The position numbers and the translations under genes were made by a program. Shown piece after piece: positions 1 through 23,497 of a DNA stretch of 34,897 nucleotides. Numbering within the stretch: the first letter of the stretch is position 1; every line of letters starts with the position of its first letter. Under the pieces are notes generated by a model. The model ran no database searches. It worked only from the letters and a program-made list of their open reading frames with translations, and was not told the origin of the DNA. This DNA comes from an uncultured Candidatus Saccharibacteria bacterium (GTDB lineage: Bacteria; Patescibacteriota; Minisyncoccia; UBA6257; Colwellbacteraceae): positions 6,926 through 41,822 of the forward strand of contig CAYGDC010000001.1 of the NCBI GenBank assembly GCA_964348605.1. Direction: 5' to 3'.

Positions 1-330
1 TAGCTCCCATGCTTCTCATGGCTCTCATGGCTCTCATAGCTCTCATAGCTCTCATAGCTCTCATAGCTCTCATAGCTCCCATAGCTCTCATAGCTCCCAT
101 GCTTCTCATGGCTCTCATGGCTCTCATAGCTCTCATAGCTCTCATAGCTCTCATAGCTCTCATAGCTCCCATAGCTCTCATAGCTCCCATGCTTCTCATG
201 GCTCTCATGGCTCTCATAGCTCTCATAGCTCTCATGGCTCTCATGGCTCTCATAGCTCCCACGGCTCCCATGGCTCTCATAGCTCCCACGGCTCCCATGG
301 CTCCCATGCCTCTCATAGCTCTCATGGCTC
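1..330. repeat. Tandem repeat with a 9-bp unit (consensus GCTCTCATA) arranged in a 90-bp higher-order unit. Copies start at 1, 91 and 181; the first two are identical and the third diverges after ~232. The array runs off the left window edge.
   Basis: Direct reading shows the same 90-nt string at 1-90 and 91-180. Unit variants are GCTCTCATG, GCTCCCATA, GCTCCCATG, GCTCCCACG, CTTCTCATG and CCTCTCATA. By eye the array is clearly more GC-rich than the following 14 kb. Confidence 0.95.
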
Positions 331-338
331 TTGTATAG
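9..338 (+). CDS. Candidate repeat-encoded hydrophobic low-complexity peptide, (A-L-I/M)n with Pro/Thr variants. The frame stays open to nt 3, so the real 5' end may lie outside the window. Coding status and strand are unresolved.
   Basis: The ORF is in the track, stops with TAG at 336-338, and lies on the same strand 47 nt upstream of the first rSAM gene. Two minus-strand frames are also open across the array (see findings), and Leu is encoded by CTC, which is rare elsewhere in the island. Confidence 0.3.
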   Translation: MLLMALMALIALIALIALIALIAPIALIAPMLLMALMALIALIALIALIALIAPIALIAPMLLMALMALIALIALMALMALIAPTAPMALIAPTAPMAPMPLIALMALV

Positions 339-385
339 TTTGTTGTGTTATCACATTTTGATATATTGTATTTACAATCAAATCC

Positions 386-2170
386 GTGTTTTTACGATAC
401 ATAGCGAATAAAATCTATTTAGAAGCTACAGACTCTATTAAAGAGGAATTTTTGCATCCAGAAATATTTTCAATTAAAAGACACATAAATCTTAGAGAGG
501 AGCACGCCTCAGTGCCGCTAGTTTTATTACTAACAAATAAATGTAATGCAATATGTACTTATTGTTATGTCAACGCAAATAAAACAAAAAAAATAATGAG
601 TTTTAAGTTAGCTAAAAAAGTCATTGATGCTGCTTTAATTAAAAATTCAAAACTAGATATATATTTCTTTGGTGGAGGAGAACCGACTATAGCGTTTGCT
701 TTAATGAAAAAAATTCAAGTATATACTAGTTCTTTCAAAAACAAACAAATAAATTTATTTTTAATCTCTAATGGTTTTTTTAATAAATCTGTAGCTAAAT
801 GGATAGCCAGTAATATAAAACATATTTCAATTTCTTGTGATGGTCCTCCATATATTCAAAATAAAAATAGGCCACTTATAGGGAAGCAAGACAGCAGCTC
901 TATTCTAGAAGAAAATCTTAATTTTTTATTACAAAAGGGAGCATCGGTGGTCCTCAGAGTAACTATCACTATGAACTCTTCTAAAAAACAAAAAGAAATT
1001 ATAGAATATGCTTTCCGATTAGGAATTAAAAAACTTTTGTTTGCACCTTTTAGAACAACTAATAAAAGCAGAAAAAACAAAGTTAAAGCAGTTAATTATT
1101 TCAAATTTGCCCAAGATTTTTTAAAAGCTAATGAGCTAGCTGATATTTTTGGATCCAAAATTATTAGCGACTTTTTTCCCATAGAGCCCAAAGATTCAAT
1201 GTGCGGCTTTGAGTCTCCTAATATAGCTGTTTCTTATTCTGGTCATGTAACTACTTGTTGGGAATCAAGCATTAGTTATACCGATAAACGCGATGAGTTT
1301 GTTTATGGCCGAATAGGGGATAATGGTGAAATTCGAAAAAACCCTCGATCTTGGGATAAAATTACTAAAAGAACACCAGATAATATAGATGAATGCCGCT
1401 CCTGTTTTTTAAAACGGAGTTGTGCTGGCGGTTGCGCCGCTACACATTTTCAAGCAACTGGAGACATAATGAAATTAGACAAAAATCGATGTGATGCCTC
1501 AAGATGGCTTGTCAAACAATATATTCTTTGTCTTGCTAGGCAACAAAACATAAATATTAAACCGTTTTTCGAACAGAATCAAAACAAAACATATTTTATT
1601 ACTTATTTTAACCGCTTTAGGGTGGGGAGAAAAAATATTATGGAGTTTAATCCGTTTATTGAAATAAGTAAGTCTAATTTAGATGATTTATCTCTCCTTA
1701 CAAAATTAATAGTTAAATATCGAGACAAAAAAGGATATAGCCCTATTTTATTTTTTTTAAATTTTATTTTTTCGCCAGATAATTTAAACATTAACACAGG
1801 ACATAAAATTATAACTTTTCTAAAAACTTTATCAGATCATAAAATACATTTTATTATAACAGCCCCATTGCCGAGCTGTATTTTTTCTACAGAAGACCTG
1901 TCTTTCATAATTACAAATTACAAATCTCCCGAAACTCTTATTACTTCTTTATCCTTTTTTCGCATAATAAATAATTTTTATTATTTTAATAACATTAATT
2001 CTAAAATTAAATATTCTGCCCTTGTAAAAAGGGAGATATTATTTAAAAGAGCTTTAGAAATTAAGCCTTTTCAAATTTATAACAAATGTTGTAAATGTCC
2101 ACTATTTTTACAAAAAAGTTGCGGAGGAGTATTTAATAAAATAAATATAAATATTGAAAAAAAATATTAA
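386..2170 (+). CDS. Radical SAM/SPASM-domain enzyme (594 aa) with a ~170-aa Cys-containing C-terminal extension
   Basis: CNAICTYC (CxxxCxxC, aa 53-60, nt 542-565), FFGGGEPT, and a canonical SPASM motif CRSCFLKRSCAGGC (aa 337-350). The C-terminal extension carries PLPSC and CCKCx7CGG. There is no ATG before the rSAM motif. GTG at 386 is the track start; TTG at 452, preceded by AAGAGGA, is an alternative. Confidence 0.85.
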   Translation: MFLRYIANKIYLEATDSIKEEFLHPEIFSIKRHINLREEHASVPLVLLLTNKCNAICTYCYVNANKTKKIMSFKLAKKVIDAALIKNSKLDIYFFGGGEPTIAFALMKKIQVYTSSFKNKQINLFLISNGFFNKSVAKWIASNIKHISISCDGPPYIQNKNRPLIGKQDSSSILEENLNFLLQKGASVVLRVTITMNSSKKQKEIIEYAFRLGIKKLLFAPFRTTNKSRKNKVKAVNYFKFAQDFLKANELADIFGSKIISDFFPIEPKDSMCGFESPNIAVSYSGHVTTCWESSISYTDKRDEFVYGRIGDNGEIRKNPRSWDKITKRTPDNIDECRSCFLKRSCAGGCAATHFQATGDIMKLDKNRCDASRWLVKQYILCLARQQNINIKPFFEQNQNKTYFITYFNRFRVGRKNIMEFNPFIEISKSNLDDLSLLTKLIVKYRDKKGYSPILFFLNFIFSPDNLNINTGHKIITFLKTLSDHKIHFIITAPLPSCIFSTEDLSFIITNYKSPETLITSLSFFRIINNFYYFNNINSKIKYSALVKREILFKRALEIKPFQIYNKCCKCPLFLQKSCGGVFNKININIEKKY

Positions 2171-2672
2171 ATCTATCATATTATTGTTTGTTGGGTTAAT
2201 AATCTTATTATTAATGCACTACTTAGGCATTGCCGACATTCCTTTTGTACAAAATAGTTTATATATAAGTTTTATTTGGTCTATAGTCGCGGTCATATTT
2301 TTAACTATAATTCACCTATTTTATTTTTATATTTTAATTCCCAATAATAAATTTTCGATATATTGGGAGAATATAAGTTGGCGCAAAATATTTAGATTTT
2401 TTTATACTTCATTTATAGAAGAGGTCTGGTTTAGGGGGGTCTTCCTTTTATTATTATTTAATATAATTGAATATCCAGCAATTTTAATATCTGCTATTTT
2501 TTTTACTATCATGCACCATAGCCGAGAGGCGCAAATATTTGCTTTTTTAATGGGGATATTATTCGGATTTATAGTTATTTATACCAATAATATCATAGGA
2601 CCATTTTTAGGCCACTGGATTTTTAATATTATAAATTATAATTTTATTGGCCCAGTTAAAATAAAAAAATAA
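2154..2672 (+). CDS. CPBP-family (CAAX/Abi-type) intramembrane glutamic protease
   Basis: A polytopic hydrophobic protein with the three CPBP motifs: EEVWFR (aa 89-94), FFTIMHH (FxxxH, aa 116-122) and HWIFN (HxxxN, aa 154-158). The TTG start overlaps the upstream rSAM stop by 17 nt, so the exact start is uncertain. Confidence 0.75.
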   Translation: MKKNIKSIILLFVGLIILLLMHYLGIADIPFVQNSLYISFIWSIVAVIFLTIIHLFYFYILIPNNKFSIYWENISWRKIFRFFYTSFIEEVWFRGVFLLLLFNIIEYPAILISAIFFTIMHHSREAQIFAFLMGILFGFIVIYTNNIIGPFLGHWIFNIINYNFIGPVKIKK

Positions 2673-2685
2673 AAATAAGTATATT

Positions 2686-3654
2686 ATGACTCTAATTACA
2701 AAGAGATCTCCATATATCGCGCTTACTTATGATTGTAATTTAAGCTGTGATTATTGCTCTTCAGAGGGACTTTATGAAAGAAATAACAAAAATATTTCAG
2801 TTAAGGATTTTGTATTAGTTATTGATTGGCTTGTAAAACAAGGAGTGAAATCTATCGCTCTTATTGGCGGAGAGCCAACTTTGCATCCAGAATTCAACGA
2901 ATTAATGAGCTATGCCGGTAAAAAAATTGCTATTTTTTTGCCCACGAATGGTCTTTTCGAAGAAAGAAAAAAAATCCCTTTTTCAAAACAAGAAATTAGA
3001 GGAGCCACGCTACATCTTAATGCAAAAACAATGTATTTAGAGAATGATTGGAAATTATTTAATCAAAATGCTATTTATCTATCTAATTTAAATATACTTA
3101 CTGATATTAGTTTTGTAATTAAAGAAGTGCCCTTGCCAAGAGAAGAGATTTTATCCTTTTGCCAGAAATATAAAAGAACACTTCGCCTTGCCTTTGCTCG
3201 ACCAAGCGCTTTTGGAAAAAACAATTTTTTAACTTTTAATCAAATAAAAAAAATTTTTTCATCAATTGAGAAAGATATTATGTTTTTTAGAGAAAAAGGC
3301 ATCAAGACCGCTATGTTTAGTAATTTGCCAATCTGCATAATAGAAAACTATCGCCCTCTTTTTTCGTACAATTCCAGCGATTTATCCCCTAATTTAGGGA
3401 CTTGTTGCTCAACAATAGATGGTAAATTTGATGCGTCTATTGTTATTCACCCCAATTTAACAACAAATATCTGTATGGCATTGCCCCTGTCAAACCCTAA
3501 AAGGATTATTGAATATAAGTCTTTAGATGAAGCTAAAAAAATTTTTGCAAAAGATTTTGCTAAAATTCAAAGAAAGCCTCTTTTTAAAAAGTGTGAAATA
3601 TGTGAGTTATATAATAATAGCTGTCATGGAGGATGCTTAGTCCGCAAACTATAG
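2686..3654 (+). CDS. Radical SAM enzyme with a SPASM/twitch-like C-terminal Cys cluster (322 aa)
   Basis: CNLSCDYC (nt 2734-2757), LIGGEPTL, and C-terminal GTCC...C...CEICx6CHGGC. Confidence 0.85.
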   Translation: MTLITKRSPYIALTYDCNLSCDYCSSEGLYERNNKNISVKDFVLVIDWLVKQGVKSIALIGGEPTLHPEFNELMSYAGKKIAIFLPTNGLFEERKKIPFSKQEIRGATLHLNAKTMYLENDWKLFNQNAIYLSNLNILTDISFVIKEVPLPREEILSFCQKYKRTLRLAFARPSAFGKNNFLTFNQIKKIFSSIEKDIMFFREKGIKTAMFSNLPICIIENYRPLFSYNSSDLSPNLGTCCSTIDGKFDASIVIHPNLTTNICMALPLSNPKRIIEYKSLDEAKKIFAKDFAKIQRKPLFKKCEICELYNNSCHGGCLVRKL

Positions 3655-3730
3655 AAAGTATATATTGCGATACTAAGTTATATAATATACACTGGAATGG
3701 TTTGAAAATGATTTATAAATCATTACAATA

Positions 3731-4645
3731 ATGACGCGACTAGATTTAAAGGTGGGATTTCAGTGCAATAATTATTGTATTTTTTGTGTGCAGGGAGACA
3801 AAAGGTACAAGCACCCAGATAGAAATCTAAAAGAAATTAAGCTAATCTTACAGCGCGGCAGCAAAGAATTAAGGCGTAATGTAGTTTTTACTGGAGGAGA
3901 AGCGACTTTGAGAAAAAATATTCTATTAAAAGCAGTGGCCTACGCTAAAAAAATAGGATATCAAACCATTCAAATCCAAAGCAATGGAAGAATGTTCGCT
4001 TATATTGATTATTGTAAAGAGCTTATCATGGCTGGAGCGAATGAGTTTAGTCCAGCGTTACACGGCTCTACTCCTGATATTCATGACGAACTAACTCAAG
4101 TCCCTGGTAGTTTTAAACAAACTACGGAAGGCATCAAAAACCTTAAACTACTCAATCAATATGTGTTAACTAATTCAGTTATTACTAAAAAAAATTATAA
4201 AGACTTACCTAAATTATCAGAGTTATTAGTTCAATTAAGGGTTAATCAATTTCAACTAGCATTTATTCATATTAATCAAATTATTGCTAGTGATCCTTAT
4301 AAAATAAATGATATAGTGCCAAAAGTAAGTAAAGTAATGCCCTATGTTAAGAAAGCGCTTGATGTTGGGGTTATAGCAGGTGTTTCTTGCATGACTGAGG
4401 CAATTCCCTATTGCCTAATGTATGGTTATGAGGACTATATTGCTGAAAAAATTATACCAGAAGCGCATGTTTTTGATGCAGAGATAGATATTATAGACTA
4501 TACTCAATACAGACGAAATCAAGGGAAAATTAAATCTCCTAATTGCCTAAGGTGTTATTACTATCAAGTCTGCGAAGGTCCGTGGAAAGAGTATCCAGAG
4601 ATTTTTGGATGGTCAGAGTTTAAATCAGTAATTAATAAAAAATGA
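3731..4645 (+). CDS. Radical SAM enzyme, paralog family A, member A1 (304 aa)
   Basis: CNNYCIFC (nt 3764-3787), FTGGEATLR, SNGRMFAY, HDELTQVPGSFKQTTEGIKN, and C-terminal IPYC...CLRCx5CEG. It closely resembles the internal rSAM domain of the 1151-aa fusion. Confidence 0.85.
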   Translation: MTRLDLKVGFQCNNYCIFCVQGDKRYKHPDRNLKEIKLILQRGSKELRRNVVFTGGEATLRKNILLKAVAYAKKIGYQTIQIQSNGRMFAYIDYCKELIMAGANEFSPALHGSTPDIHDELTQVPGSFKQTTEGIKNLKLLNQYVLTNSVITKKNYKDLPKLSELLVQLRVNQFQLAFIHINQIIASDPYKINDIVPKVSKVMPYVKKALDVGVIAGVSCMTEAIPYCLMYGYEDYIAEKIIPEAHVFDAEIDIIDYTQYRRNQGKIKSPNCLRCYYYQVCEGPWKEYPEIFGWSEFKSVINKK

Positions 4646-5637
4646 TCAATTTAAAAAATAAAAAAGCTGTTTTTAAAAAAATTAACACAATAACTAAATT
4701 ATTTAATTTATCTGCTTATGAGTTATTAGCTGTTATTTACAATTTAAAACCAGCAATGGCTGAAGCTAATACCGGTGTTTATGACTCATCGTCTTCTGAG
4801 AAGCTAGATCAACTTGGAAGAATATGTTCAGAGCTAGGCCTTAAAATGGCCTTCTCACAAAAAAAATATATCATTAATAGCCCACGAGGAATTTTTGAAG
4901 AAGTAGAACTGAATAGCCCAGAAGACGGTAATTTAGTTATTGGGATATCTAAAGATATACAAACATCATTAAGTGCTGTGGCTCATTATCGATGGAAGAT
5001 GAAAGATAGTATTTATGGCAGGAGCTTTGGCAAGCTTATGGGCTATCCTGACTGTTGCTTAGATTTTGGAGACTATTTATGCAAGGGTCACGGTGATAGC
5101 AATTCTAATAATTTAGGATTCCGTAATCCAGCCGTGGAGTCACTTAAAAGATCAAAAAAAGTAGCTTGGCAATTAAATATCTTTGTCGCATCAGCTTTGC
5201 CCCACTATCCTTGTCATTTAAATTGCAACAAAAGCAAAGATTATGTTAATGGTCTTTTCGAAATTCTAAAAATAGCTGCGCCAGAAATATACCTAAGGCA
5301 CACAATGATGCTTAAAAATGATATTAGTCTTTATTGGAGTTGCGCTGATAAGGTTGTTTTTCATGGTCATTTTATAAAAAAAGGAAATAGTTTTGCAGAT
5401 ACTGAAGCCCAATATAATAGCGCAGACTTCCATATTAATTCTTCTACATTTTATCAAGCTAACAGCGATAGTTATTTAAATCAGCTAGAAGTTATCAAGC
5501 AAGCAATAAAAGAGGGGGATAAAATCATAACTACGCCAAAATATTTTGAAATTCGGCATAGTAAAACTGTTTTATTAAAAATCAATAAAAGCCATGAGCT
5601 TATTCCAGTTTTACTTAAAAGTGATAATGAAAAATAG
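4642..5637 (+). CDS. Cys-motif protein of unknown function, family B, member B1 (331 aa)
   Basis: Motifs GYPDCC (aa 134-139) and HYPCHLNC (aa 188-195) are shared with the ORF at 7473-8432. Its ATGA start overlaps the A1 stop. I cannot place it in a named family from memory. Confidence 0.7.
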   Translation: MINLKNKKAVFKKINTITKLFNLSAYELLAVIYNLKPAMAEANTGVYDSSSSEKLDQLGRICSELGLKMAFSQKKYIINSPRGIFEEVELNSPEDGNLVIGISKDIQTSLSAVAHYRWKMKDSIYGRSFGKLMGYPDCCLDFGDYLCKGHGDSNSNNLGFRNPAVESLKRSKKVAWQLNIFVASALPHYPCHLNCNKSKDYVNGLFEILKIAAPEIYLRHTMMLKNDISLYWSCADKVVFHGHFIKKGNSFADTEAQYNSADFHINSSTFYQANSDSYLNQLEVIKQAIKEGDKIITTPKYFEIRHSKTVLLKINKSHELIPVLLKSDNEK

Positions 5638-6574
5638 CAATCAAAAACAACTCATAGCAGTAACAGGATTCACATGTAACAATAATTGTGTTTTATGTTC
5701 ACTAAGGCCTCAGGCCCTTATTCATAATAATAAAAGTACGCAGGAAATCGAAGTTATGTTGGCATCTGCTGCCAAAGAAGGCTTATCAGCAGTAGAGTTC
5801 ACAGGTGGTGAGCCTACTTTAAGAAAAGACTTACTTCATCTTATTTGTTACGCAAAAAATATAGGGTTTCGAAATATTGCGATTGGGACTAATGGTCGGC
5901 TTTTAAGTTATAAAGTTTTTTTAAACAATTTGATTAGCGCCGGATTAAATAAAATTACCCTGACCCTTTTTTCCCATAAGGAACTTATTCACGATTCAAT
6001 AACGCGAACTCCTGGATCATTTAAGCAAACAGTAACCGCTATCAATAATATTATTCAAGAGCCCAGTATTCAATTAAGCGTCAATACAACAGTTTGTCAA
6101 TTGAATTATGCATTACTTAATGAAACTGGGATATTTTTATATAAAGCTGGAGTTAAGCATTGGGGGGTCTTAGACCTTATTCCTTTTGGCAATGCTGATA
6201 AACTTTATATAAGTTTGGTAGTTAAGCTAGATGAGTTATATATTGCGCTTAATAAACTTGAAAATATAGTAGGCTATTTTCAATCAGTATCATTTTTTGA
6301 CTTCTCTCACTGTTTGTTTAATAAAAAAATAAGGAGTCATCTAAATATCAGATTTTTTGATGCGCAAGAAAGAGTGCATACTTTTAAACAAATAGGGTAT
6401 CGTCCTGCAAGATTTAGCGTGAAAAAAAAAGACATTTATAGCGATGTTCATAAGCGTCATATTGCAATATGCGAAAATTGCCATTATAACAAAAATTGTG
6501 CAGGTTTTTGGCAAAACTATCTTCATTTATATGGCGAATCATTTAAAGCTCAGGTAATAAAAAAAGCTCTCTAA
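5627..6574 (+). CDS. Radical SAM enzyme, paralog family A, member A2
   Basis: CNNNCVLC (nt 5675-5698), FTGGEPTLRKD, TNGRLLSY, HDSITRTPGSFKQT, and C-terminal CENCx5CAG. The track start is 5594. I prefer the ATG at 5627 (MKNSNQ...), which overlaps the stop of B1. Confidence 0.8.
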   Translation: MKNSNQKQLIAVTGFTCNNNCVLCSLRPQALIHNNKSTQEIEVMLASAAKEGLSAVEFTGGEPTLRKDLLHLICYAKNIGFRNIAIGTNGRLLSYKVFLNNLISAGLNKITLTLFSHKELIHDSITRTPGSFKQTVTAINNIIQEPSIQLSVNTTVCQLNYALLNETGIFLYKAGVKHWGVLDLIPFGNADKLYISLVVKLDELYIALNKLENIVGYFQSVSFFDFSHCLFNKKIRSHLNIRFFDAQERVHTFKQIGYRPARFSVKKKDIYSDVHKRHIAICENCHYNKNCAGFWQNYLHLYGESFKAQVIKKAL

Positions 6575-6578
6575 AAAT

Positions 6579-7433
6579 ATGACAACTAAAACAATTAGTC
6601 CTTATATATATATAGGATATCATTGTAATAATAACTGTATTTTTTGCTCTGAGGCTGATGGATATCTCGAGGCATTAAAAATAAAAACCACAGATCAAGT
6701 TAAAAAAGAAATTATTGCAGCTAGGCAGCAATACAATTTTATTAATTTTATGGGCAGAGAGCCCACTCTTAGAAATGATTTTATAGACATTATTAAATTT
6801 GCTCAACAACAACATTTTGAACAGATCGGTTTTACTACCAATGGCAGAATGTTGGCATACCCAGAATTTACTCAAAGGATTTTACGCACCGGCATCAATC
6901 AAGTTGCTATTTCTTTAATTGGGAATAATCACATTATTCACGATAAACAAACTCAGGTTAAGGGTAGTTTTATGCAAACAATTCATGGTATTAAAAATGT
7001 GATTAAATTTAAAGACCCTGATACCAGCTTATTAATTAACATACCACTAAATAAATTAAATTATCTTTCGCTCAAGCCTTCTCTTGATTTATTAGTAAAA
7101 TTAGGAGTTAGAGAGATTAATATTCTTTTTGTTTTTCCTTTAAGTGAGCGCTCGCAGAATAAAAATATTATAATGTCGATGAGTAAGCTAGGAGCGCATG
7201 TCTTTAAGGTCATTAAGCCTTATTTGCAAAATCCAAATTTAAAGATTCTTTTAGTAGAATTTTTGCCATGCTCTTTGCCTAAAGAAGCTAGGCAACTTTT
7301 TTTTCCTTGTTTGGAAAAAAATCCAGAGAAAATAAGAATTCCGTTATGCTCTCAATGTTCTTATAAAGGTAAGTGCGACGGAGTTTTAAAAAACTATATT
7401 GATTTATATGGAGATAGAGAATTTGTTCTTTAA
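6579..7433 (+). CDS. Radical SAM enzyme, paralog family A, member A3 (284 aa)
   Basis: CNNNCIFC (nt 6624-6647), MGREPTLRND, TNGRMLAY, HDKQTQVKGSFMQTIHGIKN, and C-terminal CSQCx5CDG. Confidence 0.85.
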   Translation: MTTKTISPYIYIGYHCNNNCIFCSEADGYLEALKIKTTDQVKKEIIAARQQYNFINFMGREPTLRNDFIDIIKFAQQQHFEQIGFTTNGRMLAYPEFTQRILRTGINQVAISLIGNNHIIHDKQTQVKGSFMQTIHGIKNVIKFKDPDTSLLINIPLNKLNYLSLKPSLDLLVKLGVREINILFVFPLSERSQNKNIIMSMSKLGAHVFKVIKPYLQNPNLKILLVEFLPCSLPKEARQLFFPCLEKNPEKIRIPLCSQCSYKGKCDGVLKNYIDLYGDREFVL

Positions 7434-7472
7434 GTGAGAAAGGTTTATAATTTTTATTAAATAATATTAATA

Positions 7473-8432
7473 ATGAAAATTAATAAAAATCTACATAAAG
7501 AAATAATTAATTATAATCTAGATTATATAGAGCTTCTTGCTCTTTTAAATAATATTAAGCCCTTAGTTTTTTGTACTATATGCCAAGCACAAAAAAATAA
7601 CTTAATAAAGCTAATGAAAAAACTTAATCTTTATTACAGATTTGTAACTGATCCGATAATTGAAGAAAAATCCGAAATGTCAAGTAGCGAAGGAGAATTT
7701 TTAATTATTTCTAAAGAGATCGAGAAAGTAAATAATTTTATTAATGTATATTTTGGCGATAATCATGAAAAAAAATTTACAAAAGTTGGAGAGCTTTTAG
7801 GCTACCCTAAGTGTTGTGCTTTTAAATATATAAATTATATTTTTAATGATGGGTCACCACAAAGATTAAGAAATTATTATTATCAGGCAACAAAAAAATC
7901 TCAAAAATTTCACTCTCTAATTAACCCCCTTTTTTCTTTTTATGGCAGGATAAGCTCAAATGAGTTTGTAAAACTTAGATCTTTTTCTGAAAAAAATAAG
8001 TCTCTCAACATACAAGAATTAATGTTGATTTCTCATGCCCCCTGTTCTTTTAATTGCATTCAGAGCATTGAATATGCAAAAAAAATCTATTCTGTTTTAA
8101 AAAGGGAAAATAAAATTAAGGCCAATAAAATTATTAAGATTCTATCAAATCCAGTTCTTTTTTTTGATACGTTTGAGTTTATTGTTTTTAATGGAAAAGC
8201 AAATAAAAAAGAAATTATTTATAACAATATTTGTCCTCCATTTTCGCTAGTTTCTGATAAAATAATAAAAAAAATTAAACAAGGAAATAGATTACTTGTT
8301 AATGATGTTAATATTCAAATATATATTGATAAAAAAAAGATATATACAATAAAAAAAGAAAGTGTGTCCGATGGGTTTATAATACCATTTTCAAAAAATT
8401 TAATAAAAGATTATGGCCTTACTCATGAATAA
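7473..8432 (+). CDS. Cys-motif protein of unknown function, family B, member B2 (319 aa)
   Basis: GYPKCC (aa 110-115) and HAPCSFNC (aa 188-195). The N-terminal ELLAxxxNxKP segment also resembles B1. Confidence 0.7.
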   Translation: MKINKNLHKEIINYNLDYIELLALLNNIKPLVFCTICQAQKNNLIKLMKKLNLYYRFVTDPIIEEKSEMSSSEGEFLIISKEIEKVNNFINVYFGDNHEKKFTKVGELLGYPKCCAFKYINYIFNDGSPQRLRNYYYQATKKSQKFHSLINPLFSFYGRISSNEFVKLRSFSEKNKSLNIQELMLISHAPCSFNCIQSIEYAKKIYSVLKRENKIKANKIIKILSNPVLFFDTFEFIVFNGKANKKEIIYNNICPPFSLVSDKIIKKIKQGNRLLVNDVNIQIYIDKKKIYTIKKESVSDGFIIPFSKNLIKDYGLTHE

Positions 8433-11400
8433 AAAATATTTTTATCTAAATATGCAAGATAAAGATTTAGAAGAAAGGATTTCGATACATAAAAAATTTT
8501 TAGACTTACATCTTGGCAATCGATTTATGGTCGATATACCAATATGTGTAAATCCACCTAAAGATTTTAATGCCGAATCTATTAAGGATTTTTGGCAAAA
8601 TTTTGTCTCTGCATTTCCCCATCGCACTGACAGTAAAATATTAAATTTTTATATTCATATCCCTTATTGTCTAAATAAGTGCCATTATTGTTTTTATGGA
8701 TCTGAGGCATTAAATAATAAGAAAGACTTAGATCGATATATTGCTGTTTTAATAAAATATTTTCAATATTTTGAGAAGACTTTTAATAAAATAACTTTTG
8801 CAAATTTATATATAGGTGGTGGGACACCTAATATATTAGATGAAAAACAATTAAAGACTTTATTAGCTGAGTTATTTAAGCGTTTTAAATTTGACAAGGA
8901 TGGAGAGAAGACATTTGAAGGCGATCCCAGGTGTTCTTCTTTAAAAAAGCTTAAGTTATTAAAAAAATACGGCTTTAATCGCATTAGCTTTGGCGTGCAA
9001 TCTTTTGATAAAAAAGTATTAAAATATAATAATAGAGATGAACAAATTGATGGCAAGGTAGTAAAACGCGCTGTTGATGATGTTAAAAAAGCCGGCATCT
9101 CCCACATTAATTTAGATATGATAGTGGGTCTTTATGGCGAAGAAGAAAATTCCCTTATTACAAGTTTCCAACAAGCCATTCAGTTAAAGCCCTATTCTAT
9201 ATCTGTATATCCCATGCAAGCAACTGATAAATATCTAAAAATGTTTTTTGATTCTAATAAAACAAAATTTGATGAATATCGAGCAAAAATTATTAATTCG
9301 ACAATAAGCAAGATATTAGAAATTGCTGAAGAGAATAATTATAAGTGCCCCACTTATTCAGAATATATTTTTCCAATGAGTAATGCCTCTTCTTTTAGTT
9401 TAATTAATCAAGCTATACGCCCGCTAAGCTCAACATACAATGTAGATAGCCCTGATCAAAATGTTTCTTGTTTTGGATTGGGGATTCATAGTATTTCTAA
9501 AATTAATGGCAGAGAATTTTCTTATCAAATGACAGAGCCGCTAACGACACATCCAGTGAACTATATTTATAAGGGAATTGCCAATGATAAAAAGCATCAA
9601 ATAGCTGAATATCTTGTGAGGGGATTTGCTTCCAAAAAATTTATTTCTAGAGCAGATATTAGAAAAGCTATCGGCGCTGATGTTATTGATTATTTCCAAG
9701 ATGTTCTTACAAAGCTAAAGGCAATTAAAATAATTAGCATTAGGGGAGATAAAGTATATTTTGCCCCTAAAACAGAGGATGAAAGAAAAAAAAATATATT
9801 ATTTTTTTATGATATTGATGAAATTAAAGCGCGCATGCCAAAAGAAGAAATAGAGCCTATTCAGCATGATAATAAAATAAAAAAAACCGTTATTATCGCT
9901 GGTTATGCTTGTAATAATAATTGCATTTTTTGTATACATGGAGACAAGCGTAGTCAGATTGTAGATAAAACTAATCTGCAAATTAAAAAAGAAATAAATG
10001 AGGCACGCAATCGAGGCAGTACTTATTTAGAAATTATTGGCGGAGAAGCGTCAACAAGGCTGGATATACTAGATTTAATAAAGTTTGCCAAAAAAATAGG
10101 ATTTAGCACCATTATGATGGCTACTAATGGTCGAATGTATTCGTATGAAGAGTTTACCAGAAAGGCTCTCCAGGCTGGCCTAAATAGCCTAGTTTTTTCT
10201 ATTCATGGCCACAATAGCGAGCTTCACGATGCCCTTACTCAGGCTCCTGGTAGTTTCCAGCAACTCAAACAGGGGCTTCAAAATGCACAAAAAATAGCAA
10301 AAGATTTAAATCTAGATATAAGCTTGGGAGCTAATGTTTGCATTGTAAAACAAAATTATAAATATTTGCCCAAGATTGGAAATTATATTAAAAAACTAGG
10401 GATTAATAACGCTGAATTTATTTTTATTGATCCCAATAATGGCGCAGGACTTAAGTCTTTTAATAAACTGGTTCCTAAAATTTCTGATGCTGCGCCATAT
10501 ATTCATAAGTGTTTAGAAATCGGTAAAAAAAATAAAATACCTCATTGGCACATTAGATATGTTCCTCTTTGTTATTTTCAAAATTATCTTGATCAAATAA
10601 GTGAATTACAGGAAATAAAATCATTTCACACTGAGCACATTGCGCCTGATTTTTATAATCCAAATGCCTCGGAGGGAAGACAAAATATTGGGCGAATAAA
10701 AACAGAAAAATGCCAAAAGTGTCAATTATTTAATAAATGCGAAGGCGTCTGGAAAGAATATTTTAGGCACTATGGTGATGCAGAACTAATGCCTATTATT
10801 GATAATAATTCTAATCACCAAAATGCCCCTATTGTTCTTCTTAGAATCCTTCCTGCCACATTTGATTTATATATAAACAATATAGATCTTCTTTGCCAAA
10901 GAATGAAGAATGATTTTAACATGCCTGTAAATCTACTATTTATAGTTTCTATGGAAGATATACTGGGAGAATTTAGAGACAAAAAGAAAAAGATGGCAGT
11001 AAAAAAAATAAAAAAAATAGTTACTAAATTAGTAAAGAAAAATTTAGATTTTAGCATTAGTCCGCTTCCTCCGTGTTTATTTAATGTTCCTTGCCCAATA
11101 ATCATCAAAAAACGGATTTTGAAAAACAATCAAACCTATTCTTTGCCCCCAGCGTTCATAACTGATCCAGGCATAAAACATTCTATTGATAGCATTGAAA
11201 ACATGGACATCCAGCCCCAATGTTTATCATGCCAATTTAAATTGAAGAATAAATGTAGGGGGATATATATAAAGATAGGCGTACCATTAATTGATCAAAA
11301 AACTCAAGAATGGTTAAAAAACAAAATAGAATCATCAAAAAATATTACTTTACTTGATTGTGGTAGTGGCGCTAATCCGCCATTTTTAAAAACCTATAAA

Positions 11401-11868
11401 GAAATTGCCTTGGGAGGCGGCCTTATACATCTTTTAGAACCCGATACAGAAGAGGTGGTGGGACTAATGCCAGCAGTCTCTAGCTACCCTAGTATTATTA
11501 TTAATAATAATACTATTGAAGATGCTGATCTCCAGAGAAATTTTTTTGATATTGTAATATTAACTGGCAGCTATTCTCATATTCACAATTTACACAAAGC
11601 ATTGCTGAATATAGAGAGCGCTTTAAAACAAGGAGGTCTTTTATTAATAAAAGACGAAATGGACACAACGCAATCTGAGGGAAATAAAATTTTTGATAAA
11701 AGCCAAGCGTCAGCTTACGGATTTCATTACAGGAATCATAGCTTAAAGCGAGTTACTGCTGAGCTAGAAAAATATAACTTTAAAGTTATTGAAGGAGTAG
11801 AAGGAGAAGCAATGAAAAATAAACATCAGTTTTGGGCTATTAAAGCAGAAAAAAATAGCTATATATAG
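8413..11868 (+). CDS. Four-domain fusion protein (1151 aa): HemN/HemZ-like radical SAM + family-A radical SAM (A4) + Cys-containing X domain + class I SAM-dependent methyltransferase
   Basis: HemN-like: YIHIPYCLNKCHYC (nt 8668-8691), YIGGGTPN, NRISFGVQSF, NLDMIVGLYGE. A4: CNNNCIFC (nt 9910-9933), IIGGEASTR, TNGRMYSY, HDALTQAPGSFQQL, CQKCx5CEG. X domain (aa ~805-955): SPLPPC and CLSCx7CRG. Methyltransferase: LLDCGSGANP (aa ~979-988) and a later GGLLLIKD. An alternative ATG at 8425 overlaps the B2 stop. Confidence 0.85.
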   Translation: MALLMNKKYFYLNMQDKDLEERISIHKKFLDLHLGNRFMVDIPICVNPPKDFNAESIKDFWQNFVSAFPHRTDSKILNFYIHIPYCLNKCHYCFYGSEALNNKKDLDRYIAVLIKYFQYFEKTFNKITFANLYIGGGTPNILDEKQLKTLLAELFKRFKFDKDGEKTFEGDPRCSSLKKLKLLKKYGFNRISFGVQSFDKKVLKYNNRDEQIDGKVVKRAVDDVKKAGISHINLDMIVGLYGEEENSLITSFQQAIQLKPYSISVYPMQATDKYLKMFFDSNKTKFDEYRAKIINSTISKILEIAEENNYKCPTYSEYIFPMSNASSFSLINQAIRPLSSTYNVDSPDQNVSCFGLGIHSISKINGREFSYQMTEPLTTHPVNYIYKGIANDKKHQIAEYLVRGFASKKFISRADIRKAIGADVIDYFQDVLTKLKAIKIISIRGDKVYFAPKTEDERKKNILFFYDIDEIKARMPKEEIEPIQHDNKIKKTVIIAGYACNNNCIFCIHGDKRSQIVDKTNLQIKKEINEARNRGSTYLEIIGGEASTRLDILDLIKFAKKIGFSTIMMATNGRMYSYEEFTRKALQAGLNSLVFSIHGHNSELHDALTQAPGSFQQLKQGLQNAQKIAKDLNLDISLGANVCIVKQNYKYLPKIGNYIKKLGINNAEFIFIDPNNGAGLKSFNKLVPKISDAAPYIHKCLEIGKKNKIPHWHIRYVPLCYFQNYLDQISELQEIKSFHTEHIAPDFYNPNASEGRQNIGRIKTEKCQKCQLFNKCEGVWKEYFRHYGDAELMPIIDNNSNHQNAPIVLLRILPATFDLYINNIDLLCQRMKNDFNMPVNLLFIVSMEDILGEFRDKKKKMAVKKIKKIVTKLVKKNLDFSISPLPPCLFNVPCPIIIKKRILKNNQTYSLPPAFITDPGIKHSIDSIENMDIQPQCLSCQFKLKNKCRGIYIKIGVPLIDQKTQEWLKNKIESSKNITLLDCGSGANPPFLKTYKEIALGGGLIHLLEPDTEEVVGLMPAVSSYPSIIINNNTIEDADLQRNFFDIVILTGSYSHIHNLHKALLNIESALKQGGLLLIKDEMDTTQSEGNKIFDKSQASAYGFHYRNHSLKRVTAELEKYNFKVIEGVEGEAMKNKHQFWAIKAEKNSYI

Positions 11869-11925
11869 CAATATATGTTACTATTAATATAATAAAGGTC
11901 GAAAATAAAATAATTAATATAAAAA

Positions 11926-12480
11926 ATGAATAAAAAAGTTTTGCTTGGAGTAGTTATATTATTTGTTGTGTTAGGCATTTTATTTATTATGATGTTAATG
12001 CCTAATTTAATCGCAGAAAGGGAGGGGGTGGGAGCGAATAGACAAGAAGCGCGACCAACATCTCTTCGTTCTTTAGTAACCCCTAATGGGCGGATTATTT
12101 ATTTGCGCGACGACATGTTCTTAAACGCGATCCACGGATTTTTTAAAGAGCAAATTAGTCCATCAGAGTTCATAATGATAGCTGACTTACAACAAATGTT
12201 TCAGGACGCCGACGGACTACATACAGAAATAAGAGTTACTATACATCCAGATGCTCCAGTTGTTGCCGTTAAAGGAATTCGAGCAGATAGAACTATGGAC
12301 GAAACTCCTATATCTATAGATGATTTACGATGGGGGAATCTAATTCAACTTGAATTAATGACCGGAGAGCTCAATACTCAAGTTTTTGAAAAAGATGCAT
12401 ATACCCCAAGAAGAATTATGCGCCTTGATTTTATTCCCATGGGCCTTACTCCTACTACTGAGCCTGCGTCTATCCCTTAA
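11926..12480 (+). CDS. Hypothetical membrane-anchored or secreted protein (184 aa)
   Basis: It has an N-terminal hydrophobic helix (VLLGVVILFVVLGILFIMMLM) followed by a soluble domain with no motif I recognise. By eye it is noticeably more GC-rich than its neighbours. Confidence 0.6.
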   Translation: MNKKVLLGVVILFVVLGILFIMMLMPNLIAEREGVGANRQEARPTSLRSLVTPNGRIIYLRDDMFLNAIHGFFKEQISPSEFIMIADLQQMFQDADGLHTEIRVTIHPDAPVVAVKGIRADRTMDETPISIDDLRWGNLIQLELMTGELNTQVFEKDAYTPRRIMRLDFIPMGLTPTTEPASIP

Positions 12481-12513
12481 AACACAGCAAAGGGGATTAA
12501 ACATAATAGTAAA

Positions 12514-12551
12514 ATACACATGGGGTGTTTATAAGAACATCCCATGTGTAT
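12514..12551 (+). terminator. Strong stem-loop downstream of the 184-aa ORF (putative terminator)
   Basis: ATACACATGGGGTGTT (12514-12529) pairs with GAACATCCCATGTGTAT (12535-12551), giving a ~16-bp stem with one G-A mismatch and a 5-nt loop. The tail is AT-rich, not a clean T-tract. Confidence 0.55.
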
Positions 12552-12585
12552 TATAAAATAACAAGATTTAAGCACATTCAATAAT

Positions 12586-12614
12586 TTGATTATCGCAAAT
12601 TTATAGATTATTAT
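12586..12614 (+). promoter_or_regulatory. Sigma70-like promoter in front of the 73-aa ORF
   Basis: TTGATT (12586-12591), a 17-nt spacer, then TATTAT (12609-12614), ending 16 nt before the ATG at 12631. The geometry matches the rpsB promoter here. In AT-rich DNA chance matches are common. Confidence 0.4.
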
Positions 12615-12630
12615 TTAAAAAAATAAAAAA

Positions 12631-12852
12631 ATGCAAAAAACTTCTTTAGTTGATAAAAAACAATATGCTGTTATTTATCGTAGTATAGAGCACTTTGAGG
12701 TTCTTGGCTTTGTTACGGCTGATTCTATAGAGGATGCAAAAGACAAGGCTAAAAAAGAATTATTAGTAGAAGCTAAACACTACGTGGTAACAGAAGCAGA
12801 AATTGCTGAATTAAAAGATTTAAATAAAATATCTTTTGATATTTCCACTTAA
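12631..12852 (+). CDS. Small hypothetical protein (73 aa), acidic/Lys-rich with no Cys
   Basis: The ORF is in the track. It sits 5 nt upstream of rSAM A5 and has its own promoter-like element. No recognisable motif. Confidence 0.5.
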   Translation: MQKTSLVDKKQYAVIYRSIEHFEVLGFVTADSIEDAKDKAKKELLVEAKHYVVTEAEIAELKDLNKISFDIST

Positions 12853-12857
12853 ATAAA

Positions 12858-13805
12858 ATGGCAGATATTTGCGTTTGGAATCGATGCAATAATGGCTGTC
12901 TTATGTGTTCTAATCCACGCGAATTTAATAAATCAGTTCACAGTGCGACATATTCACTAGATGCCATTATAAACAGAGTTAAGAAAAATTATGACAACTT
13001 ACAAAAGAATCACCAAGTTATAGACTTAACTGGTGGTGAGCCAACTATTCATCAACATTTTTTTGAAATACTCGCCCTGCTAAAAAAACAACACCCAGAA
13101 AATAAAATAGCACTCAATACTAATGGTAGGATGTTTGCTTATTATGAGTTTACTAAAAAACATTTGCCCTATATTAATTTTATTAAAATAGCAGTACACG
13201 GCTTTAATCCACAATCACATGATATTATCACTGGAATTAAAGGAAGTTTTTATCAAACTGTTAAGGGAATTAAAAACATTTTAACGGTCAGAAAAAACAT
13301 TAAAAACGGTGCTTTTATCGAAGTTGAGATAAGAATCATTCTAACAAAATTAAATTATCAAAATTTAGAAGAAATACTTAGTTTTTTACATCAAAATTTT
13401 TCAGAAGTTAATAGAATTGTATTAATTTTTCCAGAATTTGAGGGAATTTGCCAGGAGAATTTTTCTCTAATTGGCATTACATATCAAGACTGTTCATTAT
13501 TTATTAAAACAGCTATTCAGAATTGGGCCCCAAATTTTAAAGATATACGGCTTTATCACTTTCCTTTATGCGTTCTACCATTTAAGTTGTGGCCATATAC
13601 TTGGAGAACACTAAGGGGCGACGAAGTTATTTTTTTAGAAAGATGTCAGGAATGTATTTATAAAAAATATTGTCTTGGCGTACACATAGACTATCCTAAA
13701 GTCATTGGAGACAGAGAGTTTCAGCCAATTATATCTTCTGTAGGAGAAATTATAGTAAATAAAGGTGATCAATTTATTTACCACCCAATTATTGCAGTAA
13801 AATAA
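12858..13805 (+). CDS. Radical SAM enzyme, paralog family A, member A5 (315 aa)
   Basis: CNNGCLMC (nt 12885-12908), LTGGEPTIH, TNGRMFAY, HDIITGIKGSFYQTVKGIKN, FPLC, and CQECx5CLG. Confidence 0.85.
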   Translation: MADICVWNRCNNGCLMCSNPREFNKSVHSATYSLDAIINRVKKNYDNLQKNHQVIDLTGGEPTIHQHFFEILALLKKQHPENKIALNTNGRMFAYYEFTKKHLPYINFIKIAVHGFNPQSHDIITGIKGSFYQTVKGIKNILTVRKNIKNGAFIEVEIRIILTKLNYQNLEEILSFLHQNFSEVNRIVLIFPEFEGICQENFSLIGITYQDCSLFIKTAIQNWAPNFKDIRLYHFPLCVLPFKLWPYTWRTLRGDEVIFLERCQECIYKKYCLGVHIDYPKVIGDREFQPIISSVGEIIVNKGDQFIYHPIIAVK

Positions 13806-13806
13806 G

Positions 13807-14970
13807 ATGGCAATATTGCAAATAATTAATTTTATTGACTTATTTTTTTTATTACCACTTTTTATTATTGGGATAATATCTTCATATACAGATATAAAAT
13901 ATAATAAAATATTTAACAGTCTTATTATTCTTGGCTTACTTTATGGCCTCTGGATAATTATTGCTTTATTGTTACAAAATATTTTTTTACTAGGTGAGGC
14001 AGAAAACTTTATTTATATAGGCAAAGTTTTTTTAAACTCCTTTTTAGCTTTATTAGTGGGCTATTTTCTTTGGTATCAAAAATATTGGTCAGCCGGAGAC
14101 GCTAAGCTATTTACTGTTTATGCCCTATTACTACCTTTAAAATTTTACGATAAAAGTTATTTTGACTACTTCCCTTCTTTTAATTTAATAATCAATTTAT
14201 TTTTCCCAGTCATCATTGTTTTAAGCTTTTATTCTCTTAAAGATTTTTTTTATTCTTTGTTCGAGCGACTTATTAAAAAAAATATATTTTTAAAGCAGGT
14301 GCCTATTAAAGAGCGTTATTTTAATGCTATAAAAGAGCTTAAAAAAATTGGCACTTTATTAATAAACTTTATTTTTTTTATTGTTATTATCCAAATAATA
14401 TTACTTAGTTTTAGAATAGTTATTGGCCAAACAGCAGGCTTGCATCCTTTTTTACTTTATCTAATTATCGTTTTTCTAATGCAAAAAATTAATAAGTGGA
14501 AAAATAAATTTAGATGGCTCACTCCTCTTATTTATAGCGTATCATTTATATATATCTTTTATTTAATTATTCAACTTGATTTTTCTGCTATTTTGGGGCT
14601 AGCGAGAATGGCCTTAATATTTTTAATATTTATTAATTTGGCTCGTCATTTTTTAGATCATTATATTGACAGAAAAGAGATAGGATCTCTTCCATTAAAA
14701 GATTTACGAAAAGGAGTATTAATTCATCAAGAAGATTTAAGCAAGCTCATAAGCTCCTTAAGCACAAAAGAAAAGGAAGCATTAAATTGGATTGGCGCTG
14801 AAGGCATAAGCGAGGAACAAATCTTGATTATTAAAAATAAATTTAAAACAAGCCTAAATAATGAAATAAGATTTTATAAAACATTTCCTTTCGCGCCCTA
14901 TATGTTATTAGCGACTATAATCTCTATATTAACTCAATCTTCATTTTTAGCTTGGATAGATATTATATAA
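13807..14970 (+). CDS. Polytopic membrane protein resembling an A24-family (prepilin/preflagellin peptidase-type) aspartic protease, with a large C-terminal extension
   Basis: SYTDIKYNKIFN (Asp29) and WSAGDAKLF (GxGD-like, Asp98, nt 14098-14100) sit ~70 aa apart in hydrophobic segments. The C-terminal FPFAPYMLLA resembles the conserved PFxP end of A24 peptidases. The start is 1 nt after the A5 stop. Confidence 0.55.
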   Translation: MAILQIINFIDLFFLLPLFIIGIISSYTDIKYNKIFNSLIILGLLYGLWIIIALLLQNIFLLGEAENFIYIGKVFLNSFLALLVGYFLWYQKYWSAGDAKLFTVYALLLPLKFYDKSYFDYFPSFNLIINLFFPVIIVLSFYSLKDFFYSLFERLIKKNIFLKQVPIKERYFNAIKELKKIGTLLINFIFFIVIIQIILLSFRIVIGQTAGLHPFLLYLIIVFLMQKINKWKNKFRWLTPLIYSVSFIYIFYLIIQLDFSAILGLARMALIFLIFINLARHFLDHYIDRKEIGSLPLKDLRKGVLIHQEDLSKLISSLSTKEKEALNWIGAEGISEEQILIIKNKFKTSLNNEIRFYKTFPFAPYMLLATIISILTQSSFLAWIDII

Positions 14971-16756: not shown

Positions 16757-16758
16757 TT

Positions 16759-17559: not shown

Positions 17560-17607
17560 AAAGTACTAAATTGATTTTTAAAATAAAAATTATTATAGTT
17601 TTGTAAA

Positions 17608-23408: not shown

Positions 23409-23497
23409 CTGATTAAGAGAGATTTTAAAAAACTAGTTAGTTATTTATTTGTTTTTTACGATTTTTAATGTAATATTTTATAAGCAATATTATGTTT

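Follow-up and report, generated by a model that had tools for sequence, protein, structure and literature searches.

A radical-SAM gene island in a CPR/Patescibacteria contig as a likely part of an expanded His-Xaa-Ser protein-maturation locus

We analysed a 34,897-nt stretch of contig CAYGDC010000001.1, assembled from an uncultured Candidatus Saccharibacteria bacterium and referred to below as the window. At its 5' end the window carries the 3' part of hxsA, a gene for a His- and Ser-rich repeat protein, followed by an island of co-directional genes for radical S-adenosylmethionine (radical-SAM) enzymes. In our view, this island is likely to make up the downstream two-thirds of an expanded His-Xaa-Ser (HXS) protein-maturation locus that spans ~17.7 kb in a bacterium of the Candidate Phyla Radiation (CPR/Patescibacteria), because HxsA, HxsB, HxsD, and the HxsD-like protein HxsD_rel pass their family cut-offs on a near-identical contig, L001. 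A first-pass annotation, made from the window sequence alone, had proposed a peptide-maturation system at 386-14970 that it could match to no named pathway. With these four proteins above their cut-offs, the pathway can be named as the HXS system, and the proposed boundaries leave out both the substrate gene and the upstream core. Judged from its gene content, the locus would be a strongly expanded HXS variant, with a second SPASM enzyme, five HxsC-like paralogues, a HemN-like/methyltransferase fusion, a pair of Cys-motif proteins (D483a and D483b), the small protein U73, and a GxGD-type protease. HXS itself is already known; what appears to be new is the expanded CPR form with its several uncharacterised component families.

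The HXS system was reportedly first described by Haft and Basu in 2011. One passage of PMC9062424 cites these authors for it. In Escherichia coli, so far the only organism with a known antiphage role for HXS, the unit HxsD-HxsB-HxsC-HxsA blocks phage DNA entry (Li et al., Nat Commun 2026; PMC13128918). Both the non-canonical cleavage that HxsA undergoes at its N-terminus and a +8 Da change in one HxS repeat require HxsB, HxsC, and HxsD, and HxsC binds HxsD; the HxsA-processing protease and the modification chemistry are left open there (PMC13128918). Of the HXS systems in that study, 99.7% occur in Pseudomonadota and 99.8% are four-gene units (PMC13128918). A literature search found no paper describing a CPR variant of HXS or its accessory genes, and a comparison with PADLOC 2023 gave no HXS-family match, only cross-hits to viperin (pVip). 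HXS has thus been known as a near Pseudomonadota-only unit of four genes, and the CPR locus points to a far larger and more elaborate form.

The HxsA substrate and the core upstream of the window

The upstream genes were read from L001, a 38.7-kb metagenome contig recovered by exact-protein look-up. It reaches 4.7 kb further upstream than the window and differs from it at 14 of 12,170 aligned positions (99.9% identical). On L001 the island extends ~2.7 kb upstream of the window, in the order HxsD, HxsD-like, HxsB, and then HxsA, with the first three genes immediately 5' of hxsA. HxsD (L001 2043-2786; TIGR03976 60.3 bits, cut-off 50), the adjoining 71-aa HxsD_rel (NF038315 61.9 bits, cut-off 41), and the radical-SAM/SPASM maturase HxsB (L001 2991-4442; TIGR03978 481 bits, cut-off 370) all lie outside the window. 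Among the NCBIfam His-Xaa-Ser models (TIGR03976-03979; HxsA3 NF038309, HxsA4 NF038313, HxsC4 NF038332, and HxsD_rel NF038315), those for HxsA (as A4), HxsB, HxsD, and HxsD_rel are passed on L001, and the HxsC or HxsC4 cut-off is passed by no radical-SAM protein of the window.

The window itself opens within hxsA (2..361, + strand, frame-2 translation), which runs off its 5' end. A tandem array at nt 1-331, with a 9-nt unit in 36.8 copies (Tandem Repeats Finder), reads in frame 2 as 36 (S/G/A)-S-H units, after which come GSCIVCCVITF and a stop codon. The first-pass annotation had counted this array as part of the system, and it does belong there, not as a mere repeat but as the coding 3' end of the substrate gene. 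The fragment in the window encodes the C-terminal ~120 aa of HxsA and scores 51.1 bits with NF038313 (His-Xaa-Ser repeat protein HxsA4; cut-off 55), against 71.1 bits for the full gene on L001. The complete protein, of 213 aa, has a Lys-rich leader (FLSSEEGRISKK), one hydrophobic segment, and two H-x-S-x-F-x-N-x-x-G-x-G-x-H motifs; after these come about 37 (S/G/A)SH units and a tail rich in Cys. No Cys occurs within the repeat region. The N-terminus resembles the A3 model and the repeat-proximal part the A4 model. No Pfam domain was detected in full-length HxsA, and the protein lacks a G|FxxxE prepilin-type cleavage motif.

Two other readings of the array, a frame-3 open reading frame (ORF) at 9-338 (MLLMALMAL...) and a minus-strand MRAMRAM ORF, were rejected as coding because only the HxS frame enters the conserved leader and is kept across loci of differing GC content (L005, L010-L012, L016, L022, and L033). 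In public assemblies, the opposite-strand 'MRAMRAMGAM...' ORF is often called in place of the HxS frame (L002 2931-3446, minus strand; L005 30-566, minus strand). A query with the HxsA leader found one cluster in the protein database and 125 in an exhaustive representative search, and the leader family comprises at least 125 representative sequences of His/Ser-rich precursors. Because gene callers take the opposite-strand ORF and the leader search of the protein database found a single cluster, the precursor is largely invisible to protein-based surveys, and this wrong-strand calling hides the system from them.

The array also has a higher-order period of 90 nt (30 aa), with 93-99% identity. 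ASHGSHGSH blocks number three in the window (1-331) and two in L001 (4734-5075), which suggests that the copy number varies between strains or that an assembly collapsed. The start of the window inside the array is probably an assembly break.

Radical-SAM enzymes and accessory proteins of the island

The window is AT-rich (26-40% GC), with nearly all genes on the + strand. Over all six frames of its 34.9 kb, it contains eight CxxxCxxC motifs, whereas 200 mononucleotide shuffles averaged 1.08 and never exceeded 4. These are exactly the eight radical-SAM motifs listed in the first-pass annotation, and each is covered by a Pfam Radical_SAM (PF04055) match above the gathering score. They are spread over seven co-directional + strand genes, one of which, a 1151-aa fusion, has two. 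The tight packing noted earlier was borne out as well: neighbouring genes overlap by 4-44 nt or lie 1-76 nt apart, except at two larger gaps, of 150 nt (12480 to 12631) and of 145 nt beyond 14970. Within the former, between the genes for U184 and U73, lies a hairpin (12513-12552, + strand) with a perfect 18-bp stem (dG -26.5 kcal/mol, z = -6.8). This structure, already seen in the first pass, is real. It has no clean T-run and was not flagged by a terminator scan; it may be a terminator, an attenuator, or an mRNA-processing element. The promoter-like site proposed beside it (12586-12614), which matches at 9 of 12 positions, carries no weight, as sites of this kind number 71 where shuffling predicts 82.

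For five of the eight radical-SAM cores, the best NCBIfam match is HxsC4 or HxsC. Four of these are C4a (3731..4645, + strand; NF038332 136.5 bits, TIGR03977 103 bits), C4b (5594..6574, + strand; 144.5 and 102 bits), C4c (6579..7433, + strand; 116.3 and 89 bits), and C4d, a domain of the fusion protein (NF038332 157.4 bits). The four score 79-103 bits with TIGR03977, under its cut-off of 268, and none reaches the HxsC4 cut-off (NF038332, 500 bits; scores of 116-157). The fifth, which we call HxsC-like (12858..13805, + strand), is the locus's nearest relative of canonical HxsC, matching TIGR03977 at positions 30-288 of 292 with 180 bits (E 4.6e-53; cut-off 268). All five are mutual paralogues with 24-36% identity, and all five keep a C-terminal CxxCx5C motif, located where E. 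coli HxsC has the second cluster that was targeted by mutation. C4a is the most conserved, present in every CPR locus with 55-66% identity to its orthologues; C4c orthologues are 42-61% identical. As a query, the C4d domain matched 1358 protein clusters at E <= 1e-10, other HxsC-like paralogues included. The best 120 of these 1358 are 58-70% identical, and all named ones among them are from CPR bacteria and annotated only as 'radical SAM protein'. Radical-SAM maturation of a peptide or protein, as put forward in the first pass, is supported, and iterative modification of a repetitive peptide is the best reading.

R594 (386..2170, + strand; PF04055; SPASM TIGR04085 40.7 bits, cut-off 27) is a second radical-SAM/SPASM maturase and a distant paralogue of HxsB (23% identity). 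It scores 123 bits with PapB and 94 bits with HxsB, both under the cut-offs, and has a C-terminal extension of ~200 aa that ends in CCKCx8C. Its orthologues lie directly 3' of hxsA in L010, L011, L012, L016, and L035. The short radical-SAM protein R322 (2686..3654, + strand; PF04055 44 bits) has a C-terminal CxxCx5CxxxC motif; its matches to known families are limited to the N-terminal third, and weak orthologues occur in L016 and L033.

The 1151-aa fusion (8413..11868, + strand) combines a HemN-like radical-SAM domain (aa ~70-440), C4d (aa ~488-730), a Cys-motif linker, and a class I SAM methyltransferase domain (aa ~976-1127). The HemN-like and methyltransferase domains, as well as the two paralogous Cys-motif proteins described below, had been recognised in the first pass, and family and paralogy searches confirmed them. 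With the HemN, HemW, HemZ, ChuW, and STM4012 models, the HemN-like domain scores 121-145 bits and reaches none of the cut-offs (205-400); it is related to the superfamily but belongs to no named equivalog (HemN, HemW, HemZ, or ChuW). It resembles the HemN-like class C radical-SAM methyltransferases ChuW/HutW in matching the HemN, HemW, HemZ, and ChuW models, and its fusion to a class I methyltransferase suggests C1 transfer. Unlike ChuW/HutW, it stays under every cut-off, is fused to an HxsC-like radical-SAM domain, and in many orthologous loci is either encoded on its own or missing; the parts of the fusion are separate genes in L011, L016, and L007, for example. An (A/S)PLP(S/P)C(I/L)F motif followed by CxxC...C occurs both in R594 (window 1546-2170, aa ~388-594) and in the fusion (10783-11292, aa ~791-960). 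The two regions may represent a shared undescribed Cys-containing domain; BLAST detected no similarity between them.

The Cys-motif proteins D483a (4642..5637, + strand; weak DUF483 match) and D483b (7473..8432, + strand) are paralogues with 24% identity and the signature GYPxCC...PCx3C, whose four Cys residues are invariant. Homologues of D483a form 64 clusters, and all named ones are CPR/Patescibacteria. It is on named homologues of this kind that the assignment of the window to CPR is based. Its AlphaFold2 (AF2) model is confident (pLDDT 89.8). Because neither Foldseek (best E 0.1, TM <= 0.2) nor sequence searches of the PDB found a match, no function can be transferred to D483. Domain fusions between D483 and radical-SAM proteins occur in L016 and in Myxococcales (L028, L030), which argues for a physical partnership; D483 is probably a partner of HxsC-like radical-SAM enzymes. 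Outside CPR, D483-like sequences were seen in Myxococcales and Archangium metagenome-assembled genomes (L028 7709-10627, L030 7652-10627, L026, and L031) and in Nanohalarchaeota (L023, L024). In Myxococcales, D483 is fused to one or two HxsC-like radical-SAM domains and a neighbouring radical-SAM protein is fused to peroxiredoxin, and in the DPANN archaea the D483-like genes stand alone. The myxococcal fusion loci were rejected as true HxsC4, scoring 101-155 bits against a cut-off of 500.

Two membrane proteases had been named in the first pass. The A24-like (GxGD-type) polytopic aspartyl protease (13807..14970, + strand; 387 aa) starts 1 nt past the HxsC-like gene and has a long C-terminal extension. 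Its motifs Y.DI......N and W.aGDAKlF contain both catalytic Asp residues and are invariant in 12 aligned orthologues, but its Pfam score is borderline (PF01478 26.3 bits against a gathering score of 26.5). The L005 orthologue has an unmarked PF01478 match (E<=1e-5) in precomputed Pfam annotation. Wherever the contig of a CPR locus extends far enough, an A24-like gene follows the HxsC-like gene. The CPBP (Rce1-like) intramembrane protease (2154..2672, + strand) was verified by PF02517 (51 bits, cut-off 22.4) and by the motifs EExxxR, FxxxH, and HxxxN, present as IEEVWFR, FTIMH, and HWIFN. Apart from the window lineage, only L016 and L035 among the fetched loci have its gene, a lineage-restricted accessory that is not conserved.

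U73 (12631..12852, + strand), a conserved small protein of 73 aa, is encoded directly 5' of the HxsC-like gene in 10 of the CPR loci examined. Orthologues were found in 11 distinct loci, including L050 and L064, which were anchored on HxsB. From its sequence alone, AF2 modelled it poorly (pLDDT 61). Descent from HxsD by divergence was considered for U73 and dropped, as hhalign found no relation to HxsD or HxsD_rel. U184 (11926..12480, + strand) has an N-terminal transmembrane segment and no family match. Its homologues are confined to L009 and contigs of the same strain, and it is lineage-specific and probably not a core component.

Conservation of the layout and competing explanations

A D483 profile scan of GTDB species representatives yielded 24 loci, which were annotated by comparison with the window proteins (blastp, phmmer) and by searching all six frames for HxS repeats, with flanks of 10 kb. 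The first-pass annotation had treated the island as a unit, and its layout does recur in related genomes. Fourteen of the 24 loci are from CPR bacteria (GC 0.25-0.49; labelled Colwellbacteria, Minisyncoccia, Saccharibacteria, or 'Patescibacteria group') and share the order C4a...(C4b, C4c)...D483a-C4d-(U73)-HxsC-like-A24, the stop codon of one gene often overlapping the start codon of the next. The closest GTDB representative, L009 (DBNY01000040.1), has 85-91% amino-acid identity for most shared proteins. Its NCBI label ('Bacillales/Caryophanales bacterium UBA660') and that of L022 (CAZMCB010000006.1, 'Pseudomonadales') look wrong, because their gene content and GC resemble those of the CPR loci.

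In seven fetched CPR loci (L005/L014, L010, L011, L012, L016, L022, and L033, of which L033 came from a subsequent look-up and not from the D483 profile scan), hxsA heads the cluster and encodes a protein with the same leader and 32-61 H-x-S triplets. HxsD-HxsDrel-HxsB precede hxsA in L010, L012, L016, and L022, as does the end of HxsB in L011, and in L020 the HxsD-HxsDrel-HxsB-HxsA genes lie 3.4 kb past the A24-like gene. The cluster of L033, a complete 661-kb Nealsonbacteria genome, spans ~17 kb, and its first gene encodes a 543-aa HxsA-like protein with an extra C-terminal domain.

A reciprocal test, with an HxsB profile run against metagenome contigs, gave 80 loci (GC 0.26-0.71). A leader-bearing HxS ORF with 3-149 repeats was present in 36 of the 80, normally right after HxsB. 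Many of these HxsB-anchored loci have further HxsC-like radical-SAM genes, 12 have the A24-like protease, and compact HxsD-HxsB-HxsC-like-A24-C4d loci occur in higher-GC organisms (L072, L075). Because the HxsB-anchored search recovers both the A24-like protease and the extra HxsC-like enzymes, these are recurrent HXS accessories and not chance neighbours.

The precursors vary at their C-termini. Those of the CPR clusters (window, L005, L010-L012, L016, and L022) have Cys (SC, SCC, or TCC) within two residues past the last HxS, and HxsB-anchored precursors outside the CPR clusters frequently end in GQW, SSY, or GGWC. In the window lineage the tail is hydrophobic (CIVCCVITF, window 331-361), and the CPBP protease gene is nearby. 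The longest array was seen in L063 (Ga0172375_10024701), where HxsD-HxsDrel-HxsB are followed by a 507-aa ORF with 149 HxS units. A Cys/His-rich linker and a conserved ~330-aa C-terminal domain follow the repeats in L033 (269-1900), L022 (4342-5916), P0186, P0187, and P0247; this domain takes the same position as the peptidoglycan-binding domain of E. coli HxsA.

Several observations weigh against assigning the whole island to HXS. The upstream core is known from the near-identical contig L001 and not from the window itself. In six loci (L013, L015, L017, L018, L019, and L021), there is no HxsD, HxsB, or HxsA within 10 kb of the radical-SAM module, and other CPR loci have added PMT_2 and GT2 glycosyltransferase genes; because of these two features, the module could act on another substrate. 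The HxsC-like enzymes cannot be given substrates by orthology, as all of them score below cut-off (180 against 268; 116-157 against 500). Cleavage of HxsA by the A24-like protease is argued from linkage and topology, as HxsA has no G|FxxxE motif. Finally, the 150-nt gap with its strong hairpin may split the island into two transcription units.

These features also bear on the alternative that two separate systems adjoin here, a small HXS core (HxsD, HxsD-like, HxsB, HxsA, and perhaps R594) and an independent CPR radical-SAM module, held together by inherited synteny. The module would then act on type IV pilins, envelope proteins, a glycan, or a lipid. The six loci whose module stands without a nearby core favour this view, as do the hairpin and gap that divide the island of the window, the pilin-like N_methyl genes (L007/L013) or T2SSF gene (L034) that follow the A24-like gene, and the PMT_2, GT2, and spermine-synthase-like genes interleaved in L008, L033, and L034. 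However, the enzymes of the module are paralogues of HxsC, which canonical HXS needs and which would otherwise be missing from the upstream core. HxsB-anchored loci, the compact ones included, independently yield A24-like, U73, C4a-like, and HxsC-like genes, and L020 brings the complete core close to the A24-like gene. Moreover, because flanks were limited to 10 kb, the absence of the core from a locus does not equal its absence from the genome. We therefore regard two adjacent systems as rather unlikely.

The first-pass annotation had compared the island with skfA-skfB-skfC, and an undescribed sactipeptide-like pathway of that style for ribosomally synthesised and post-translationally modified peptides (bacteriocin-type), making a small secreted cross-linked peptide, has in its favour the succession of precursor gene, SPASM radical-SAM gene, and CPBP membrane protease gene, together with the many peptide-maturase models that match R594 (E 1e-10 to 1e-35). 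This likeness turned out to be superficial. The precursor belongs to the HxsA family with a dedicated HxsB and HxsD, so the pathway is already described, and with its 213 aa, membrane anchor, and repeats the precursor is no short Cys peptide. Thioether links are impossible in the repeat region because it has no Cys. The SkfB (TIGR04403, 31-36 bits against 300), AlbA (29-31 against 850), SCIFF, and PapB models remain far under their cut-offs. CPBP is missing from most orthologous loci, there is no transporter or immunity gene, and the locus is vertically conserved beside housekeeping genes rather than sporadic. A sactipeptide-like pathway thus seems very improbable to us. We find it scarcely credible that the substrate is not a peptide and that the genes belong to a pathway for a cofactor, heme, molybdopterin, or a lipid. 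HemN-, MoaA-, NirJ/AhbD-, and Tes-like families do appear among the sub-threshold NCBIfam matches of every radical-SAM gene, and pyruvate:ferredoxin oxidoreductase (POR) and ferredoxin genes adjoin the island. Profile searches, which the first pass had named as the check on this point, placed all such matches well under their cut-offs and below the HxsC/HxsC4 matches; no other genes of those pathways are present, and the locus starts with a dedicated repeat-protein substrate, HxsB, and HxsD.

Precedents, proposed maturation, and flanking genes

The expanded HXS locus shares with E. coli HXS an HxS-repeat substrate, HxsB (radical-SAM/SPASM), HxsD, and an HxsC-type radical-SAM enzyme with a C-terminal CxxC auxiliary motif. 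In both, the HxsA N-terminus is processed or anchored and the product envelope-bound, on the CPR side as a prediction. The two differ in scale and in design. CPR HxsA has ~37 or more repeats, whereas E. coli HxsA has 5, and instead of a peptidoglycan-binding domain or canonical signal peptide it has the leader, a transmembrane segment, and the Cys-rich tail. The gene order is D-Drel-B-A-...-C-like and not D-B-C-A; 13 further genes follow HxsA, with the HxsC-like gene second to last, so the canonical four-gene order is not kept. About ten radical-SAM cores stand against two in E. coli, and the D483, U73, HemN-like/methyltransferase, A24-like, and CPBP genes are additions. The host is a CPR bacterium, and the locus is vertically conserved beside housekeeping genes.

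For the chemistry, the SPASM-type triceptide synthases that act on a three-residue motif beginning with His (HaaB on HAA, YhhB on HNR, and HtkB on HTK) would be the best precedent for HxsB or R594 acting on H-x-S. These enzymes join His C2 to the C-beta of the third residue (PMC11499958). The locus nevertheless scores far under the cut-offs of triceptide-maturase models (GrrM/OscB TIGR04261 49.5 against 310; YhhB NF041707 38.4 against 445; NF041718 31.7-43 bits against 425). Its His motif is repeated ~40 times in one protein, and the modification in E. coli HXS is +8 Da, not -2 Da. The A24-like enzyme resembles Peptidase A24 (prepilin/preflagellin peptidase) in being polytopic with both catalytic Asp motifs, and the substrate orientation expected for that family (N-in, single transmembrane segment) is the one predicted for HxsA. 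It departs from the family in its 387-aa length with the long C-terminal extension, in its borderline Pfam score, and in lacking an N-terminal methyltransferase or zinc domain; moreover, HxsA lacks G|F/MxxxE, and in most loci the gene is linked to the HxsC-like gene and not to pilus genes.

The chemistry and cellular role of the CPR variant we infer, and the following route seems the most likely. HxsA would be synthesised in the cytoplasm, where its conserved leader would be recognised by HxsB and R594, probably with the help of the HxsD proteins. HxsB and R594 would then act iteratively on the His-x-Ser triplets, most likely forming a cross-link from His to residue +2 as triceptide synthases do. 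The HxsC-like paralogues, some of them paired with D483 or U73, may carry out further steps or serve different repeat contexts, and the HemN-like (class C-type) radical-SAM domain and the class I methyltransferase may add C1 units. With a positive-inside N-terminus followed by a transmembrane segment, HxsA is predicted to be N-in/C-out. Because GxGD proteases cleave substrates in this orientation, the A24-like enzyme is a good candidate for N-terminal processing; it would cleave off the leader at the membrane and leave the modified poly-His/Ser domain outside the cell. A further trimming step, at the Cys-rich tail, may fall to the CPBP protease in the window lineage. The A24-like enzyme is thereby a candidate for the missing HXS protease.

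If E. coli HXS is a guide, the product may work in the cell envelope, for instance by keeping out phage DNA. A constitutive surface component fits at least as well as a phage barrier, given the stable synteny beside housekeeping genes and the reduced genomes. We also entertain a bolder proposal, possible but doubtful, in which the CPR HXS supercluster is vertically inherited and takes up ~2-3% of a ~660-kb genome. Its ~ten radical-SAM domains would exhaustively cross-link and methylate a poly(His-x-Ser) of 30-150 repeats, with D483, for whose predicted fold the PDB has no match, and the conserved U73 also taking part. Its dedicated GxGD protease would release or mature the product and be the missing HXS N-terminal processing enzyme. 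The product would be a constitutive, chemically unprecedented surface polymer at the centre of the CPR envelope (for phage exclusion, metal handling, or host attachment), and the cluster would not be a sporadic defence island. CPR genomes retain few dispensable genes, and the locus raises the question of why ultra-small episymbionts invest so much in a modified poly-His surface protein. With its 40 or more repeats, the substrate offers many identical modification sites, which eases mass spectrometry and NMR.

The PMT_2 (protein O-mannosyltransferase/ArnT-like) and GT2 genes mentioned above lie among the radical-SAM genes at L008 4154-5809, L033 7316-8974 and 12883-13551, and L034 2046-3785. 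Their presence hints that the Ser-rich product may also be glycosylated outside the cell.

Directly 3' of the A24-like gene, the window encodes two subunits of a pyruvate/2-oxoacid:ferredoxin oxidoreductase and a 4Fe-4S ferredoxin (15116-17823). Elsewhere, POR genes follow the A24-like gene in L005, L011, and L012, and ferredoxin does so in L005 and L016. These proteins may supply electrons to the Fe-S clusters of the ~10 radical-SAM domains, or their position may reflect inherited synteny. The 15-35 kb part of the window is otherwise housekeeping in content (SMC, S16, KH, TrmD, S2, Tsf, L10, TGT, and PBP2, in addition to POR and ferredoxin). An Rfam scan found only tRNAs, every one outside the island. 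Three tRNA genes are clustered at 23326-23690 (+ strand), and a fourth, at 26154-26227 (minus strand), is among the very few minus-strand features of the window.

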